This document shows, one piece after another, positions 42,255 to 54,665 of a DNA stretch of 62,180 bases; the first letter of the stretch is position 1; each line of letters starts with the position of its first letter. The translations under genes were made by a program, and so were the position numbers. The DNA lies in NCBI GenBank assembly GCA_949902805.1, contig CATLDI010000002.1, positions 1 to 62,180 of the forward strand, read 5' to 3'. This DNA is from an uncultured Clostridiaceae bacterium (GTDB taxonomy: Bacteria; Bacillota; Clostridia; TANB77; CAG-508). Under the pieces are notes generated by a model. It searched no databases, had not been told where the DNA came from, and saw only the letters and a program-made list of their open reading frames with translations.

Positions 42255-43980
42255 TTAAATTGATATGTTTCCATTTGTTCTATATAAATTATAGCGTTCT
42301 CTTCCTAAAGCTGTTAAATATGTTTTTCTTAATTTCGTTATATCTTTATTTTGTGTTTCATACATATTTGTTTTTATATTATATTTTTTCAATTTTCCTT
42401 CTATTATATTATCTAAGTCATAATTTATAGAAACATTTACTATGCAGTTATAACATTTTGGATAATATTGTGGATAGTAATGTGCTTCTCCATTTTCTGG
42501 AACTTCTATTTGAGAATTTTCTTTTACTATTCTTTGAACTCCTTCTATCGTTTGCCTTTCGAAGTCTATTACATTATATGCACCTACTATATCATAATTG
42601 TTTTCTATTAAATCACTACAACCTGGAATATGTGCTTCTGTTATTCCTTTGGAATTTTTTGCCAACACATAAATAGAATCTTGTATTACTACTTCCTCGT
42701 TTTTGTCATTTGTTATTACACAATATGAATTAAAGAATTTTGATTTGATTGGTAGTCCTTGCATAAATACTGACATAGATATATTATTTAACAACTTTTC
42801 CCAATCTTCTTCTTTAAGTATTGGCATTTCAAATTTGTATGTTCCACCTGTTCCAACATTATAATTTGCTATAGCTGAAGAAAGATTTGTTTCTATTGAT
42901 TTTCTTATTACGCTCATTCTGTGTTCATTGAATGTTGAACCTTCTAACAGTGGATTGTTTTTAGCTGAAAAACTAAATATTTCCTCATCACCTGTATTTG
43001 AGTTAAAATTTGTTATATTATCTCCATTTGTATCAATTGCATGACTTTGTTTAATGTTTCCTATATTGCTATTTAGCCAATTACTAAATTCATATGCATT
43101 TATATAATATTCTGCTGCACTATTATTGTATAAGTTTCCATTTGAAGTTAATCTTTGTGCATACATTAGTGATGTTACTTCTCCTGTTTGCAATAAATTT
43201 CCTTCATCTGTTAAATATTGTTTTTTATAATTTGCATATAGAAAATATCCATTTGTATCTTTGTATATTTTTTGGTTGTTGTATATTGTATATTGATAAG
43301 AACTTCTTGTTGCTGTTCCTTCGTCATCAATTGTTATTAATTGTTCTGTTAGTATTTCTCTTTCTATTTGTATTCCATCATATACTACACTTTGTGCATA
43401 ACCATTACTATCTTTTACTATATTTGTTACTAAATTTGGATTTATAACATATCCTGATTTTGTAACATAATTTCCTTTTATATTTCCATACACAGTTATA
43501 CTATTATCTAGTGTATAGTTTACTACAAAATCATCTAGGCCACTTTTGTACCTACATGAGTAATAAATATATGGTTTTAGTCCATATTGATATTCCCCAT
43601 TCTCGCCTAATTGATAATTAAAGTATTTACCATATATATAATATCCGTCATACATAGTATATACTATTGCTGGTATAAATTCTCTTAATTGCTCTTTTTC
43701 ATATCCACTTGCTCCCATTGATGTTCCTAAAGAATTATAAAAAGTATTTATGGAAGCTTCTATATCTCTTATTTTTGAATCACTTATACTAGAATATTTA
43801 TTATTTATAGTATTTAATTGGAATGCTTTTATTGCATCATATGCGGCGTCTTGAAGTTTTTTGTTATATCCGAGTTTGTAAGTATATAGTATCTATTTGA
43901 GATGCAATATATTCACCTAATACTAATGATATTGGCAATATTATAATAACAAATATTATTGCTAAATGTTGTAATTTCAT
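42255..43980 (-). CDS. 574-aa N-terminally anchored protein at the distal end of the pilus locus, requires a +1 shift at CGG-A (43870-43872)
   Basis: ATG at 43980 gives MKLQHLAIIFVIIILPISLVLGEYIASQIDTIYLQT-R-I-*. The +1 frame continues GYNKKLQDAAYDAIKAF...SLGTSMGASGYEKEQL into ORF 42255..43718. Confidence 0.55.
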
Positions 43981-44004
43981 TTCTTGCTTTCCTTTCCTCA
44001 ATTT

Positions 44005-44108
44005 GTAGGGGCGATTAGCAATCGCCCACTCTACGTAGGATTAGCTAAAACAATTATTATTTTAGAGCTATTTCATAGAAGTGGCGGGCGATTAATAATC
44101 GCCCCTAC
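44005..44108. repeat. pair of REP-like hairpins (family A, CGATTA..TAATCG subtype)
   Basis: GTAGGGGCGATTAGCAATCGCCCACTCTAC and GGCGGGCGATTAATAATCGCCCCTAC. Relatives at 55889-55914 and 58391-58413. Confidence 0.8.
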
Positions 44109-44138
44109 ATTTGCCTTTAAATTATTTATAATTTAAAA

Positions 44139-44190
44139 TAGAAGTTAGACTAGAAATTAGAAAATTTAAATTTCCAACCTCTAACATCTA
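44139..44190. repeat. inverted heptamer-array element (family D)
   Basis: AGAAGTT AGACT AGAAATT AGAAAAT / TTCCAAC CTCTAAC ATCTAAC TTCTAAA. Confidence 0.65.
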
Positions 44191-44209
44191 ACTTCTAAAA
44201 TCTTATAAA

Positions 44210-52072: not shown

Positions 52073-52196
52073 TTAAAGGCTCCTTTCTTTTTCTTTATAT
52101 GCCAGTGGGACCACTTTCTACATCTTAATCACTTCCACTAGGGCAAAAGAATATCTCCTCCCCTTTATGAATTAGTGTTCTCCTATTTACTTTTTA

Positions 52197-53042
52197 TTAC
52201 ATTTTAATTTGTAATTCTTGTAGTTTATATATTAGTTCTTTTGACATTTTTGAAATTTCTTGTATAAATATTTCATTCCTATCTTCTGTATTTATATTTC
52301 TTAGTCTTAAGAAAAATTCTGCAACTTTTCCTTCTGAACAGCTTTCAAAAAATAGCGTATTATATGGTATTGCTATAATATTTTTTCTCATTCTTAAATA
52401 TCTTGAAATATTTTTTACATTATATTTTGAAAATTTATCGTATCTTCCTATATTTAATAAAATATTATTATTTTTGAAAAATCCGTTTTTTTCTTTTAGA
52501 GCATAGAATTTTTCTATATTTTGTAGTCTTTGAGTAATATTAACTATAACAACATCTGCCATTTCCAGAATTCTATTTGCCTCTTCCTTATTCATTTTTT
52601 TAGAAACATCTACAAAAACTAAATCATAATTTTTATTAGCTATATTTATTATTTCTGGATATATTTTGGCAATTTCTGAATATTCACTATATAAGTTTGT
52701 TTTAGGTGAGCGTAAAACATCTAATCTATCATTAAATACTATTTTACTATAATTTGATATAATATTAGATGTTGTTTTGTTGCTTTTTATTATTTTTATC
52801 AATCCTTCAATTCCAGCATCTAGACCTACTACCCCATTTGTATTGTTAGAAATTTTGTTGATAAAAGTTGCTTCCTTTTGTCTGTTCCAATAGCAATCTT
52901 CTAATGTTTCATCTTTAAAATTAGTACTAATATTTAATATTCTGTAATTATGTTCAATTGCCATATATGTTGATACGGCCACCATAGATAATGTTTGACC
53001 TGTTTCTTTTTCTTCATCACTCCAAAATGCAATTACCGCCAT
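52197..53042 (-). CDS. ParA/MinD-fold protein, TadZ/CpaE-like, degenerate Walker A
   Basis: AVIAFWSDEEKETGQTLSMVAVSTYMA sits where KGGxGKT is expected. YDLVFVD Walker B-like. Position is next to the ATPase. Confidence 0.45.
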   Translation of the reverse strand: MAVIAFWSDEEKETGQTLSMVAVSTYMAIEHNYRILNISTNFKDETLEDCYWNRQKEATFINKISNNTNGVVGLDAGIEGLIKIIKSNKTTSNIISNYSKIVFNDRLDVLRSPKTNLYSEYSEIAKIYPEIINIANKNYDLVFVDVSKKMNKEEANRILEMADVVIVNITQRLQNIEKFYALKEKNGFFKNNNILLNIGRYDKFSKYNVKNISRYLRMRKNIIAIPYNTLFFESCSEGKVAEFFLRLRNINTEDRNEIFIQEISKMSKELIYKLQELQIKM

Positions 53043-53043
53043 T

Positions 53044-53742
53044 TTAAACTCCTTTTTCCACTTTTTTAAATATTTTTCTTATCATTCGATAATCTTCTTC
53101 TTCCAATATTTGAGCTACTGTATACATTAAACCTTCTTTGAATTGTACAGTTAATTCTTTAAGTCTAATTTTAGCTAGCCTTTGGTTTTTGTATATAACC
53201 GTTTGATCCCCCAATTCAAATGGTAAATATATAATTTCATCATTCCACTTTATATTGCTTTTAGAAGATAAATAATTCAAATATTCATTTTCTTCTTTTG
53301 TAGCATTTCTAGAAACTAAAATCTTTGTAGCACAAACTTGTTGTTGAATTGCACTAATAGATTCTATTCCTTTTTTTATAGAATATAAATCAAAACATGT
53401 CACAAAATATATTTTTTCACATTCTTGTATTCTATAACTTGAAACTCCACCCATTGAGTCAGTATCAATTAACACTATATCATAAGGAAGTTCATTTGTT
53501 TCTGGTATTCCTATATATTGTTTTATTTCTTCAAAACTTTTTAGTCCAATACATATATCTATTCCTTCGAACTGAGTTATATATGCCCTAGAGGATTCAA
53601 TAGTTGGAACAGTATATCTAGCTTTTTGTGTTATAGTTCCATCTACTACTAAAACCTTTTTTCCTACTTCTACTAAAACTTTAGCTATATATAACATAAA
53701 ATCAATTTTATCATAAGCTCCTATGAATCCTATTTTTTTCAT
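53044..53742 (-). CDS. second ParA/MinD-fold protein, degenerate Walker A
   Basis: KKIGFIGAYDKIDFMLYIAKVLVEVGKKVLVVD and YDIVLIDTD. Confidence 0.45.
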   Translation of the reverse strand: MKKIGFIGAYDKIDFMLYIAKVLVEVGKKVLVVDGTITQKARYTVPTIESSRAYITQFEGIDICIGLKSFEEIKQYIGIPETNELPYDIVLIDTDSMGGVSSYRIQECEKIYFVTCFDLYSIKKGIESISAIQQQVCATKILVSRNATKEENEYLNYLSSKSNIKWNDEIIYLPFELGDQTVIYKNQRLAKIRLKELTVQFKEGLMYTVAQILEEEDYRMIRKIFKKVEKGV

Positions 53743-53759
53743 TTATTTCCTCCTATGTT

Positions 53760-54665
53760 CTAGTTACCGCCTAAAGCTTCTAAATAACTTTGTCTTTCTT
53801 CTCTAGCTTTTGTAATTTCTTCTTGTACTCCAGCTTGTACGTTATCTAGTCCATCTTCAGCATAATTATTTAATATACTAGTGATATCTCCTCTTATTGT
53901 AGATGCAGTATTATTATATCTTGTAAATAATTCATTTTTTGCTACTGCCACAATATTAGGGTCTGTATTCATTAATTGAATTACTTTATCACTTGGCAAA
54001 TATGTAGGTGTTGCTTTATCTTGCATTCCTGGTTCAACATAAGTTGATGTATATAAAATTGAACCTGGTGCCCAATAAGCTTCTACAATTGCATTACTCA
54101 TTACTAGAATTTCTTCTTCAGTCATATTTACTTTTATTGTATTTAATGATTCTACTCCATCTATTGTTGGTATTGTTACTTTTTTCTTAGATGCTACTAT
54201 ATAATCTGTTCCATTTGGCATTCTTAAACGAATATCTATATAGTCTCCATTTTTTATTTGCCCTGGAAGTTGAATCATATTATATTCTTGTGTTCTCAAA
54301 TCTACAGAAGTTCCTTCTCCTTCTTCATTTATCATATTAGTAGCAAGTACTGTTCCTACTTTTAAATCTATTTTTGCAGTAGTCTCTTCTGTTATACTTG
54401 TTATATCAACTGCATTACTTGGGATAGCATCTCCAGTTACTAAAACTTGTTTCAAACTAGAAGTTGATATAACCTCTCCTGATTTAATATCTTTAGATAC
54501 TACATATACTTTTTTCATTTTTGCTTCTTGAGTTTTTATTTGTTTGTTTACCTTACTTAATTGCATAAATAATATTGCAATTATACTTCCTGTTATTAAT
54601 AAAGTAACAAAAACACCTATTAATAAATAATTATTTGCTTTTCTTTGCATTGGGTTCATCACCAT
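53760..54665 (-). CDS. CpaB/RcpC-like pilus assembly protein (N-terminal TM + SAF-like domain)
   Basis: TM YLLIGVFVTLLITGSIIAILF. VYVVSKDIKSGEVISTSSL is SAF-like. First gene of the locus, with AGGAGG SD. Confidence 0.55.
   Translation of the reverse strand: MVMNPMQRKANNYLLIGVFVTLLITGSIIAILFMQLSKVNKQIKTQEAKMKKVYVVSKDIKSGEVISTSSLKQVLVTGDAIPSNAVDITSITEETTAKIDLKVGTVLATNMINEEGEGTSVDLRTQEYNMIQLPGQIKNGDYIDIRLRMPNGTDYIVASKKKVTIPTIDGVESLNTIKVNMTEEEILVMSNAIVEAYWAPGSILYTSTYVEPGMQDKATPTYLPSDKVIQLMNTDPNIVAVAKNELFTRYNNTASTIRGDITSILNNYAEDGLDNVQAGVQEEITKAREERQSYLEALGGN

Follow-up and report, generated by a model that had tools for sequence, protein, structure and literature searches.

The locus at 42255-54665 of the window (the whole stretch of DNA analysed, 62,180 nucleotides) is one species' copy of a known, very divergent Tad-type pilus locus of TANB77, an uncultured gut order. 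It probably encodes a type IV filament system that derives from Tad (type IVc-like) and is found across the order.

The same 12-gene "pilus gene cluster" was described as genes 927-938 of HRGM_Genome_2725 (CAG-245 sp000435175) and was found in 122 of 129 TANB77 species (Kim et al. 2024, Nat Commun 15:10726; PMC11680825). In that study, AlphaFold and Foldseek were used to annotate the genes as CpaB, TadZ, CpaE, a TadA/CpaF with one transmembrane (TM) helix, a TadC+TadB fusion with eight, and seven pilin-like proteins. No microscopy was included, and so far nobody has observed a filament. Because the cluster was published in 2024 with the same annotations, the system was already known, and the novelty implied in an earlier note on this DNA is not upheld.

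The copy studied here matches the published cluster in its 12 genes and in their order, sizes and topologies. It differs in belonging to another species (the ATPase of its best relative is 93% identical), in carrying three single-base frameshifts, in having sporulation genes upstream of g1, where the subclade including CAG-245 has a DUF2651 protein, and in the AT-hook-like tail of its ATPase, which the CAG-245 clade lacks. The locus of Clostridium sp. CAG:245 was recovered as an orthologue, with gene lengths exactly one below the published figure for eight of the 12 genes. The 12-gene order was intact in 62 of 80 species-level loci. Median identities were 79% for the ATPase, 67% for g5, 63% for g11 (the highest of the non-machinery genes) and 37-47% for the pilin-like proteins, as expected if the motor is conserved while the exposed subunits evolve fast. 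The genes are as follows, with the gene numbers of Kim et al. in brackets.

42255-54665, minus strand: locus of 12 co-oriented, tightly spaced genes, g1-g12
53760..54665, minus strand: g1, CpaB/RcpC-like, N-terminal TM helix and SAF-like domain, 301 aa (927)
53044..53742, minus strand: g2, small ParA/MinD-like protein, degenerate P-loop GAYDK[T/I]D, 232 aa (928)
52197..53042, minus strand: g3, TadZ/CpaE-like ParA-fold protein, 281 aa (929)
50080..52072, minus strand: g4, predicted CpaF/TadA-clade secretion ATPase, 663 aa after repair (930)
47861..49936, minus strand: g5, polytopic platform with two TadB/TadC-like (T2SSF-like) modules, 691 aa (931)
47082..47769, minus strand: g6, MENASKALIIAG pilin-like paralogue, 228 aa repaired (932)
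46574..47080, minus strand: g7, MENASKALIIAA pilin-like paralogue, 168 aa (933)
46061..46489, minus strand: g8, small protein with N-terminal signal-anchor, 142 aa (934)
45490..45894, minus strand: g9, shortest MENASKALIIAG pilin-like protein, 134 aa (935)
44749..45468, minus strand: g10, MENATHAFFIAF... pilin-like protein, 239 aa (936)
44210..44734, minus strand: g11, conserved N-terminally anchored protein, 174 aa (937)
42255..43980, minus strand: g12, large N-terminally anchored protein, 574 aa repaired (938)

Machinery genes compared with Tad and archaeal systems

The g4 product consists of an N-terminal TM helix, a ~260-aa N-terminal extension, the ATPase core and a basic tail, and its intact orthologues measure 631-679 aa at 77-93% identity. 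When the g4 profile was compared with structures, Caulobacter CpaF (8rkd) was the best match (E 2e-28), followed by FlaI (4e-14) and VirB11 (~2e-10). Among the invariant positions of the alignment are the Gly-Lys of Walker A (GKT) as well as conserved Arg, Glu and His residues. All Pfam and NCBIfam matches to the machinery genes fell under the curated cut-offs, as for Pfam T2SSE on g4 (20.5 bits against 24.9). The profile scores support g4 as a CpaF-clade ATPase, and the earlier description of a CpaF/VirB11-type ATPase with an N-terminal TM helix and a basic tail stands, the tail being AT-hook-like. As in Tad systems, only one ATPase gene is present in the cluster.

The AT-hook-like motif, KRRGRKPK, ends at least 41 of the 80 ATPase orthologues, g4 of this window included; its presence on more than half of them is a new observation. 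A tail of this kind could bind DNA, and a short filament could then serve as the conduit for competence-type uptake or conjugation-like transfer, a reading which we consider quite unlikely. It would agree with the location of homologous modules on large plasmids, where in pTHECO01 genes for a replication-relaxation protein and a VirD4-type coupling protein lie ~8-12 kb away from the module. It would also agree with the best NCBIfam match of g4, which is "TadA family conjugal transfer-associated ATPase" (TIGR03819) at E 1.8e-10, far short of the cut-off. However, the TANB77 cluster is chromosomal, single-copy and vertically inherited, and relaxase or coupling protein genes are absent from the window and from the 18-29 kb regions retrieved around the other six plasmid loci. 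Moreover, the tail is missing in the CAG-245/CAG-780 clade and in all plasmid homologues, and the ATPase profile scores CpaF far above VirB11 and ComGA-type ATPases.

The possible fused TadB/TadC platform proposed earlier for the 691-aa protein was borne out by hhalign, with TadB/TadC profile matches at residues 4-286 (95.2%, P 2.9e-8) and 498-673 (86.5%, P 4.6e-6) of g5. This protein, which is 60-90% identical across the order TANB77, gave no Pfam, NCBIfam or PDB sequence match, and its AF2 model was poor (pLDDT 54.7). Similarly, the CpaB/RcpC-like identity of g1, found in 77 of 80 related loci, was supported by the CpaB profile (hhalign 90%, P 1.5e-6); TIGR03177 matched at E 2e-7, under its cut-off, and Pfam SAF at E 0.012.

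The g3 profile matched CapB, ParA 3ea0, Get3 and CooC at E 1e-3 to 0.03, and hhalign aligned it weakly with the TadZ/CpaE ATPase domain (64%, P 6e-5, 236 columns). For g2, there was no Pfam or NCBIfam match and essentially no homology to TadZ detectable by hhalign; it is placed here solely by a profile match to MinD 4v02 (E 0.048) and by hhalign against g3 (56%), and is predicted to be a more degenerate paralogue of g3. The Walker A had been called degenerate, without GKT, in both ParA-fold proteins, which holds for g2 and for g3 of this window (ETGQT), but 16 of 30 aligned g3 orthologues have GKT. The profile tests support every functional assignment made in the earlier note.

As in Tad/Flp (type IVc) systems such as Caulobacter Cpa and Aggregatibacter Tad, a CpaF-clade ATPase is the sole motor, and with it come platform modules of the TadB/TadC type, a SAF protein resembling CpaB/RcpC and ParA-fold proteins resembling TadZ/CpaE. 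The genes run in the order CpaB - TadZ - TadA - TadB - TadC - pilins, as they do in the canonical Firmicutes Tad locus carried by the Thermoanaerobacterium plasmid. In contrast to Tad/Flp, the platform here is fused into one protein, the ATPase is ~200 aa longer, membrane-anchored and under family cut-offs, and two TadZ-like proteins are present, which lack the receiver-like domain and have degenerate P-loops. Furthermore, there is no Flp pilin (G/XXXXEY), recognisable TadE/F domain or TadV peptidase here, and the subunits have no leader peptide.

The ArlJ/FlaJ-type platforms of archaeal Epd pili and the archaellum are single proteins with two T2SSF-like halves, and g5 is alike in this respect. 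Tad ATPases reportedly derive from archaeal Epd-like systems. However, the g4 profile scores FlaI and archaeal GspE2 fourteen to fifteen orders of magnitude worse than CpaF, and archaellin-type class III signal peptides and FlaH/FlaG/FlaF-like genes are absent here.

Pilin-like proteins and frameshifts

All sequence hallmarks of type IV pilins are missing from the pilin-like proteins, in which neither a leader nor Gly at -1 nor Glu5 is present. Their direct start at an invariant MENASKALIIAG is a new observation; with no leader to remove, they would not require processing by a prepilin peptidase. The absence of an A24 prepilin peptidase, Flp pilin and secretin from the locus, reported earlier, was confirmed: no secretin and no polytopic A24-like ORF occur within the window, and the Flp motif is absent from all pilin-like proteins of the locus. 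A TadV peptidase query also found no match in the flanks (up to 10 kb) of the 80 related loci.

The probable candidate for the major subunit is g9. Its first 12 residues, and most of its first 25, are invariant among 56 homologues, and it is homologous to plasmid-borne pilin-like proteins. A pilin fold had been expected of the MENASKAL proteins; the AF2 model of g9 is a confident (pLDDT 86.6) "lollipop" with helices at 2-36 and 42-53 and then a small alpha/beta head, but Foldseek gave no significant PDB match. Orthologues of g6 were found in 78 of the 80 loci, g8 in 72 and g10 in 67; no family match was obtained for g8, for g10 (Pfam, NCBIfam) or for g11, and the Pfam DUF3801 match on the C-terminal part of g7 (26.7 bits) is probably an effect of sequence composition. 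Plasmid homologues were detected for g11 (E 9e-20 to 7e-9) and for the N-terminal ~330 aa of g12, the latter being proteins of 325-342 aa. No Pfam or PDB match was found for g12, which is the "pilin 938" that was assayed on dendritic cells and whose N-terminal quarter was given a TadE/PilV-like structure (Kim et al. 2024).

The twelve tight, co-oriented genes noted earlier were confirmed in order, strand and spacing, but three of them are not intact ORFs: single-base frameshifts within 12.4 kb break the ATPase g4, the first pilin paralogue g6 and the 574-aa g12. One extra base within the Walker A codons (~50923-50924; GGTTG-TGG = GCGKT in the two closest relatives) splits g4 into ORFs of 426 aa and 285 aa, while the breaks of g6 and g12 lie at an A6 run (47329-47334) and near 43871-43878, respectively. 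If these shifts were real, this copy could be inactive, and the locus would be a decaying pseudogene array in this organism, with three genes including the motor ATPase knocked out at its Walker A. This is very unlikely. The essential pheS, together with recD2 and sigF, is cut short by similar breaks in the window, so that sequencing error is likelier than gene decay, and the locus genes retain full-length, highly conserved reading frames outside the breaks. The frameshifts are probably sequencing errors or assembly indel errors.

Neighbouring genes and intergenic repeats

The annotated neighbours agree with the earlier placement of the locus, with spoIIAA/spoIIAB/sigF, spoIID and SpoIIQ-like M23 genes on one side and spoIVB/murC on the other. 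Since spoIVB lies directly 3' of g12 in 49 of 64 related loci as well, a sporulation-associated machine, for example one making spore appendages, could be imagined, but such a role is highly improbable. The three upstream genes of the window (sigF, spoIID, M23) had no match in any of the 80 related loci, the plasmid homologues have no sporulation neighbours, and a 47-bp hairpin stands between the cluster and the upstream sporulation genes. In Clostridium sp. CAG:780, a ~310-aa membrane protein, a probable truA and a DUF2651 protein are found upstream of g1. The association with sporulation genes looks like inherited gene order, not function. The structured intergenic features are listed below.

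54821..54946, minus strand: perfect 47-bp stem-loop between the SpoIIQ-like M23 gene and g1
49959..50117, minus strand: heptamer arrays between g4 and g5, weak fold (z -2.5)
45951..46047, minus strand: heptamer-array hairpin between g8 and g9 (-31.7 kcal/mol, z -4.8)
43990..44203, minus strand: structured region between g11 and g12, with a heptamer-array hairpin (44139-44203) and a REP-like palindrome pair

The stem-loop, with arms at 54821-54867 and 54900-54946 (-96.9 kcal/mol, z -18.6) and a T-rich tract after it, probably acts on the upstream transcription unit, as its terminator or as an insulator; the perfect repeat noted earlier is real, but its length is 47 bp instead of 46 bp. The REP-like palindromes, GGGGCGATTnnnAATCGCCC, form a pair at 44004-44109 and have a third copy at 37125, and the fold energies of the g11-g12 region are -27.3 and -54.3 kcal/mol. 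Heptamers are AGATGTC / TTCTGAC at 45951-46047 and 49959-50117 and AACATCT at 44176-44203, and the last residues of the ATPase tail are encoded by the upstream array of the g4-g5 pair. The arrays described earlier as separating the genes are real and fold into hairpins, but they are not specific to the locus. They also occur at 6438, 8005, 11292 and 39008, and the AGATGTC/GTCAGAA units do not figure among the period-7 units that are common in the 80 related loci, with none in the clusters listed. The arrays are therefore a general intergenic feature of this genome and no part of the system.

Plasmid-borne relatives and the proposed filament

Beyond TANB77, to which the system is thus not restricted, related modules were found in Bacillales and Clostridium on seven large plasmids: pTHECO01, pBsph (Lysinibacillus sphaericus C3-41), pBpOF4-01, pPPM1a (Paenibacillus polymyxa M1), pSP10-266k, pRSJ17_1 and pFWSKR40E1. 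This occurrence is new. Eight gene families are shared in the same order, i.e., the SAF protein, g2, g3, the ATPase (40-69% identity in the core), a 680-aa platform, a leaderless pilin-like protein, g11 and the N-terminal part of g12. The plasmid modules differ in having one or two small subunits instead of five and a short g12 homologue (~325 aa), followed in most of them by SLH, cell-wall-binding or similar surface proteins and then by a 960-1200-aa giant; some of their ATPases have no TM helix. In four of the seven plasmids the giants carry the annotation DUF5704, and GGDEF/HD genes lie 3' of at least three modules. No account of the modules in print came to light, a full-text search for the family name DUF5704 giving no papers. 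The cell-wall-binding, DUF5704 and GGDEF/HD neighbours constitute a surface or biofilm context.

These neighbours could also be cargo. Like a type II secretion system, the apparatus might build a short pseudopilus, acting as a piston or conduit that exports or displays large surface proteins (g12, or the SLH/cell-wall-binding and DUF5704 giants) without any long adhesive fibre. Behind the small subunits there is always a large anchored protein (g12, or the plasmid homologue with the surface protein and giant), and there are several low-similarity "minor-pilin-like" genes with no clear abundant Flp-like major pilin. Myxococcus Kil is reportedly a Tad-like apparatus with a non-pilus role and would be a precedent. 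We regard this possibility as unlikely: g9 is a short protein whose gene is flanked by hairpins of its own and whose invariant N-terminal helix resembles that of a major subunit, and nothing points to g12 or DUF5704 proteins as substrates rather than fibre components.

In the Tad-derived filament system preferred here, the membrane-anchored, hexameric g4 would dock on the two-module platform g5 and use ATP to lift pilin-like subunits from the membrane, with g9 as the probable major subunit and g6, g7 and g10 as variants or minor ones. Their invariant N-terminal helices would be stacked into a fibre crossing the Gram-positive wall, and g1 may form an extracytoplasmic collar. The TadZ-like g2 and g3, with their degenerate P-loops, could position or scaffold the machine, probably without ATP hydrolysis. 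The two non-machinery proteins conserved in the plasmid relatives as well, g11 and the N-terminal part of g12, would probably prime assembly or cap the fibre, and the large variable C-terminal part of g12 would be exposed as an adhesin. The puzzle of the system lies in pilin-like proteins without a leader peptide and with no prepilin peptidase nearby. For the gut bacteria of TANB77, its role is likely to be adhesion or colonisation.

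Gene layout, reading frames and distribution in TANB77

The ORF map shows twelve closely packed genes between 54665 and 42255, all on the minus strand, as the earlier note had described (twelve co-oriented, tightly spaced genes). They are named here in transcription order as g1 (CpaB-like), g2 and g3 (ParA-fold), g4 (ATPase), g5 (platform), g6, g7, g9 and g10 (pilin-like), g8 (small anchored protein), g11 (174-aa anchored protein) and g12 (anchored protein, 574 aa when repaired). The claimed sporulation flanks were also recovered, with spoIIAA, spoIIAB, sigF, spoIID and a SpoIIQ-like M23 gene upstream and spoIVB and murC downstream. 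A further sporulation gene on the contig, spoVT (24304-24876; 263 bits, above cut-off), is located between the sortase cluster and a prepilin-like gene.

That first description was largely accurate, but three frameshifts in the locus went unreported. The ATPase gene g4 is split into ORFs of 426 and 285 aa, with one extra base within the Walker A codons at about 50923; the window reads GGTTGCCGG here, whereas the two closest relatives read GGTTG-TGG, encoding GEQGCGKTT. The frame of g6 is broken at the A6 run 47329-47334 and that of g12 near 43871-43878. Frame-repaired versions of g4, g6 and g12 were used in the protein analyses. Interrupted frames were also found elsewhere in the window:

25053-26044, region listed with the frameshift-interrupted genes
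29645-31943, recD2, frameshift-interrupted; the alignment covers only 1-649 of 713
37264-38320, pheS, frameshift-interrupted; the alignment covers only 3-259 of the 324-position model
56960-57865, N-terminus of sigF, frameshift-interrupted; aligns only from position 30

Because pheS, recD2 and sigF are broken likewise, the breaks in g4, g6 and g12 are read as assembly indel errors and not as decay, and the pattern suggests a contig with indel errors roughly every 5-8 kb. Real pseudogenisation of the cluster in this strain is very unlikely for the same reason.

The inverted repeat reported beside the locus is indeed perfect, but its stem is 47 bp and not 46 bp (arms 54821-54867 and 54900-54946; free energy -96.9 kcal/mol, z-score -18.6). 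It is probably a strong terminator, since it comes directly after the M23 gene and is followed by a T-rich tract. The heptamer-array hairpins of the locus likewise exist, but could not be upheld as a feature of the system, because similar arrays occur outside it:

6438-6460, 11292-11315, 39008-39038 and 8005-8038, short heptamer arrays with units TATTCAC/ATTCACT and TTAGAAG

In addition, AGATGTC/GTCAGAA is not a common period-7 unit in the related loci. Given the outside copies and the uncommon units, the arrays are better regarded as a property of the intergenic DNA of this genome than of the system. The outside arrays adjoin the ends of a phosphoglycerate-mutase-like gene, a GAPDH-like gene and murC, and two related genomes (L008 and L009) carry a similar AAGTTAG/ACTTCTA hairpin at about 6030-6100, outside the pilus cluster. 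Heptamer-array hairpins seem to be in general use between genes throughout the group. Another repeat was present in three copies, with none expected by chance:

37125-37145, 44008-44028 and 44085-44105, 20-nt palindrome GGGGCGATTnnnAATCGCCC

Two copies, both between g11 and g12, fold into one structure of -54 kcal/mol, and the third is located in the pheS-pheT gap; the palindrome looks like a REP-type repeated element. No family was found in an Rfam search of the window, and a scan for sigma-70 promoters and terminators, with 96 sites vs 94 expected, told nothing in DNA so rich in AT.

The repaired g4 has >7,400 database relatives, the best 120 of which are intact proteins of 634-669 aa with 78-93% identity. 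When one genome was taken per species, 573 loci encoded a g4 relative. All of the 80 loci kept for comparison belong to uncultured gut or rumen Clostridia, Clostridium sp. CAG:245 and CAG:780 included, and the complete ordered 12-gene set is present in 62 of them. Median identities across these loci were 79% for the ATPase, 67% for g5, 63% for g11 and 37-47% for the others, compared with 64% for murC and 54% for spoIVB in the neighbourhood. When a library clustered at 50% identity was searched with the closest intact ATPase orthologue (P0001), 1,398 matches had E ≤ 0.001 and 371 had E ≤ 1e-30, and these small counts point to a distinct, fairly narrow branch. From the nature of its relatives (MAGs of uncultured Clostridia together with CAG:245 and CAG:780), we infer that the host belongs to the order TANB77. 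A prophage or other mobile-element origin of the cluster in TANB77 was rejected on its uniform composition and conserved position. A sporulation-linked role is highly improbable, as the upstream genes of the window are absent from 80/80 loci and the relatives also occur in plasmid contexts.

A 10-14-gene stretch has been reported in 122/129 TANB77 species (Kim et al. 2024, Nat Commun 15:10726; PMC11680825), and its gene order, topologies and most lengths agree with g1-g12. In the published annotation of CAG-245, gene 927 is CpaB, 928 TadZ, 929 CpaE, 930 TadA/CpaF with 1 TMH and 931 a TadC+TadB fusion with 8 TMH, while 932-938 are seven anchored pilin-like proteins (PMC11680825). The CAG:245 locus (L015) matches 12/12 window proteins at 40-82% identity, and its lengths equal the published figure minus one for 8/12 genes. 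The interpretation in the earlier note was therefore right, but the novelty it implied does not hold, since the 2024 description covers the same cluster (PMC11680825).

ATPase, platform and associated proteins

In searches of Pfam and NCBIfam, all 12 proteins gave sub-threshold matches or none. As a single sequence, g4 reached 20.5 bits with Pfam T2SSE (cut-off 24.9) and 40.6 bits with the TadA-family ATPase model TIGR03819 (E 1.8e-10; cut-off 373). The g1 protein matched TIGR03177 (CpaB) at E 2e-7 and SAF at E 0.012, both under the cut-offs, and the nine remaining locus proteins had no meaningful match in the curated libraries. Where those libraries barely responded, profiles built from orthologues matched Tad components, which supports the reading of a divergent Tad-type locus. 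The g4 profile matched Caulobacter CpaF at E 2e-28 across residues 265-533, with weaker matches to FlaI (4e-14), archaeal GspE2 (4e-13), VirB11 (2e-10) and PilT/GspE (about 1e-9), and the Walker A Gly-Lys and conserved Arg, Glu and His residues were among its invariant columns. On these profile scores, the single-sequence ones being below cut-off, the proposed CpaF-type ATPase is supported, and the locus shares a CpaF/TadA-clade secretion ATPase with Tad (type IVc) systems. An archaellum-like reading was rejected on the CpaF and FlaI scores. A Com pseudopilus is also not indicated, as had been stated, because the ComGA model matched the locus ATPase at only E 0.0027 and 16.8 bits against a cut-off of 300 and no ComGC-type N-termini occur in the locus, whose CpaB-like and TadZ-like genes are Tad-specific.

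The suggestion that the 691-aa g5 could be a fused TadB/TadC platform holds, based on two separate hhalign alignments to a TadB/TadC profile, one over residues 4-286 (95.2%, P 2.9e-8) and the other over residues 498-673 (86.5%, P 4.6e-6). TadB and TadC platform modules (T2SSF domain), as known from Tad systems, would thus both be present within g5. The match was obtained with a 19-sequence g5 profile including plasmid homologues against a 9-sequence TadB/TadC profile, and appeared only after the plasmid homologues and the multi-sequence Tad profile were added; TadB and TadC taken as single sequences were not matched by a shallow g5 profile, and neither Pfam T2SSF nor a PDB sequence search gave a match. 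An AlphaFold model of g5, for which the input was a shallow alignment of sequences with at least 80% identity, was unusable (pLDDT 54.7), and PDB sequence-profile searches of g1, g5 and g12 found nothing. For g1, hhalign against a CpaB profile (90.3%, P 1.5e-6) bears out the CpaB/RcpC-like assignment, a SAF-domain component likewise shared with Tad systems.

The two ParA-fold proteins are less clear. The g3 protein matched the TadZ ATPase domain weakly (64%, P 6e-5), ParA/Get3/CooC chains being also weakly matched, and g2 had no TadZ match but reached MinD at E 0.05, so that it is marginally ParA/MinD-like by sequence. Structural similarity of both counterparts to TadZ/CpaE was reported by Kim et al. 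(PMC11680825). Their Walker A is degenerate in the window, with P-loops GAYDK[T/I]D in g2 and ETGQT in g3, but the absence of GKT does not extend across g3 orthologues: 16/30 of those aligned have GKT, and the plasmid homologues are without the lysine.

The basic tail of the ATPase resembles an AT-hook:

50080-50160, AT-hook-like C-terminus of g4; KKRGRKAK in the window, PKRRGRKPK in many orthologues

Endings of the KRRGRKPK type were found in at least 41/80 TANB77 ATPases, window g4 included (e.g., L013, L016-L020 and L022), whereas neither the ATPases of the CAG-245/CAG-780 clade nor those of the plasmids have one. The residues past this motif in window g4 are encoded by a heptamer array.

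Pilin-like subunits and the prepilin peptidase step

The candidate subunits of the locus start with MENASKAL (g6, g7 and g9 all have MENASKALIIA), MENATHAF (g10), MGDSLITI, MKLQHLAI or MKKTLAIL. The Flp-type G/XXXXEY motif is not in any of them, and Flp/TadE family models gave no match. Type IV pilins have a short basic leader ending in Gly or Ala, followed by a hydrophobic helix with Glu5. In contrast, the pilin-like proteins are without a leader, Gly at -1 or Glu5; in g9, no Gly precedes position 12 and a Glu is at position 2. The g9 frame opens a mere six codons 5' of the ATG, and residues 1-12 (MENASKALIIAG) and most positions up to 25 do not vary among 56 homologues (49-83% overall identity). 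The AF2 model of g9 (pLDDT 86.6) places helices at 2-36 and 42-53 ahead of three strands and two further helices; this predicted lollipop shape with a small alpha/beta head is compatible with a pilin. Foldseek of the model against the PDB gave nothing better than E 1.7, and a small TadE/F/G profile was not matched by g9, g11 or g12 in hhalign. The subunits of the plasmid relatives start with MSTNASKAL, MESPVVKAI or MDSPVVKKI, so leaderlessness appears from these N-termini to be a family trait, plasmid versions included.

No A24-type polytopic ORF was seen within the window, and a TadV query at single-sequence sensitivity found nothing in the window, in the DNA flanking the 80 related loci (up to 10 kb) or in the seven homologous plasmid loci. 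These searches and the family models agree with the claim that the locus lacks an A24 peptidase and a Flp pilin. In 15 loci of a subclade (L009 at 6839-7363 and 14 others, L002 and L015 included), a membrane protein of 128-182 aa with an Asn/Asp/Gly-rich tail is encoded directly upstream of g1; it is absent from the window. It was considered as a small TadV-type peptidase and rejected, the L009 copy matching DUF2651 and not A24. Its gene may count among the additional ones behind the published range of 10-14.

Two paralogous proteins with prepilin-like signals are encoded elsewhere in the window:

58990-59799, minus strand, prepilin-signal-like protein, …ERG/ITLISLVITIIIL
25268-26044, minus strand, its paralogue, ITLIALIITIIIL

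Both have Ser or Ala in place of Glu5 and gave no match to pilin family models. If they are true prepilins, a prepilin peptidase would be expected elsewhere in the genome. A separate surface-protein cluster (17751-23491, minus strand) encodes a 1361-aa protein with seven Cna_B domains and VWA, a 196-aa sortase and a protein of 346 aa whose C-terminal segment is anchor-like. This is probably a sortase-dependent adhesin or pilus, so that genes for two unrelated types of surface fibre may be present in the organism.

Plasmid-borne relatives and putative function

Searches of plasmids by tblastn recovered ATPase cores with 40-69% identity, well separated from canonical CpaF (23-30%), on large plasmids of Thermobacillus, Cohnella, Paenibacillus, Cytobacillus, Sporosarcina, Alkalihalophilus, Lysinibacillus, Clostridium argentinense and C. 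botulinum. Judged from these sequences, the system is not exclusive to TANB77, which is an addition to the published description. The plasmid loci examined were seven:

L081 (pTHECO01), L082 (pBsph), L083 (pRSJ17_1) and L086-L089

Their common order is a SAF protein, g2, g3, the ATPase, a 680-aa platform, a leaderless pilin-like protein, a g11 homologue and a homologue of the g12 N-terminus (325-342 aa). In most, an SLH or cell-wall-binding protein comes next and then a giant protein of 960-1200 aa (DUF5704 in four), with GGDEF and HD-domain genes 3' of the giant-protein gene in at least three. We know of no published description of these modules, as a full-text literature search for DUF5704, the family name of the giant protein, returned no papers. 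A 456-483-aa hypothetical protein is encoded immediately before the SAF gene in five plasmids. The canonical Tad locus of a Thermoanaerobacterium plasmid (L090) has the same frame as the plasmid modules, in that cpaB is preceded by a gene for a hypothetical protein of 494 aa and the pilin genes are followed by an HD gene.

On balance, the locus is predicted to encode a Tad-derived pilus. The anchored CpaF-like g4 hexamer, acting on the two-module g5 platform, would pull leaderless subunits from the membrane, and their invariant helices would be stacked into a fibre. The g1 protein could form an outer collar and g2 and g3 could be non-catalytic positioning proteins, while g11 and the N-terminal part of g12 would prime or cap the fibre, and the variable part of g12 would be left exposed. 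An unlikely alternative to such a pilus is a short pseudopilus for the export or display of the large proteins encoded downstream. A device for DNA transfer or DNA uptake is also quite unlikely; in its favour are the plasmid location of the relatives, one plasmid locus with a coupling protein and a relaxase-like gene nearby, and the AT-hook-like ATPase tail.

A bolder and more doubtful proposal is that of a type IV filament free of prepilin peptidase, with a membrane-tethered CpaF-like motor and a fused platform, forming a separate Firmicutes-wide lineage. Its subunits would be made already 'mature', with Met-Glu-Asn-Ala-Ser-Lys leading directly into the core helix, and the lineage would have its genes on the chromosome in TANB77 and on plasmids in Bacillales and Clostridium; it could have been missed by the published description since only gut genomes were searched there. 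To our knowledge, the prepilin peptidase step is treated as universal among type IV filaments, and subunits that appear to bypass it are of interest for pilus biology.

TANB77 is an uncultured gut order whose abundance tracks the response to checkpoint-blockade cancer therapy, and the recombinant g12 orthologue ('pilin 938') activates dendritic cells via TLR4; that study was without microscopy and made no mention of a peptidase, leader peptides or plasmid homologues (PMC11680825). The residual interest of the present locus is its apparent peptidase independence and the newly noted cultivable plasmid relatives. These carriers, Lysinibacillus sphaericus, Paenibacillus polymyxa and Alkalihalophilus pseudofirmus included, offer a genetically tractable route to a system that is unstudiable in TANB77 itself. 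The cluster is the signature feature of TANB77, and knowing the product of this machine would help to explain how these bacteria meet their host.
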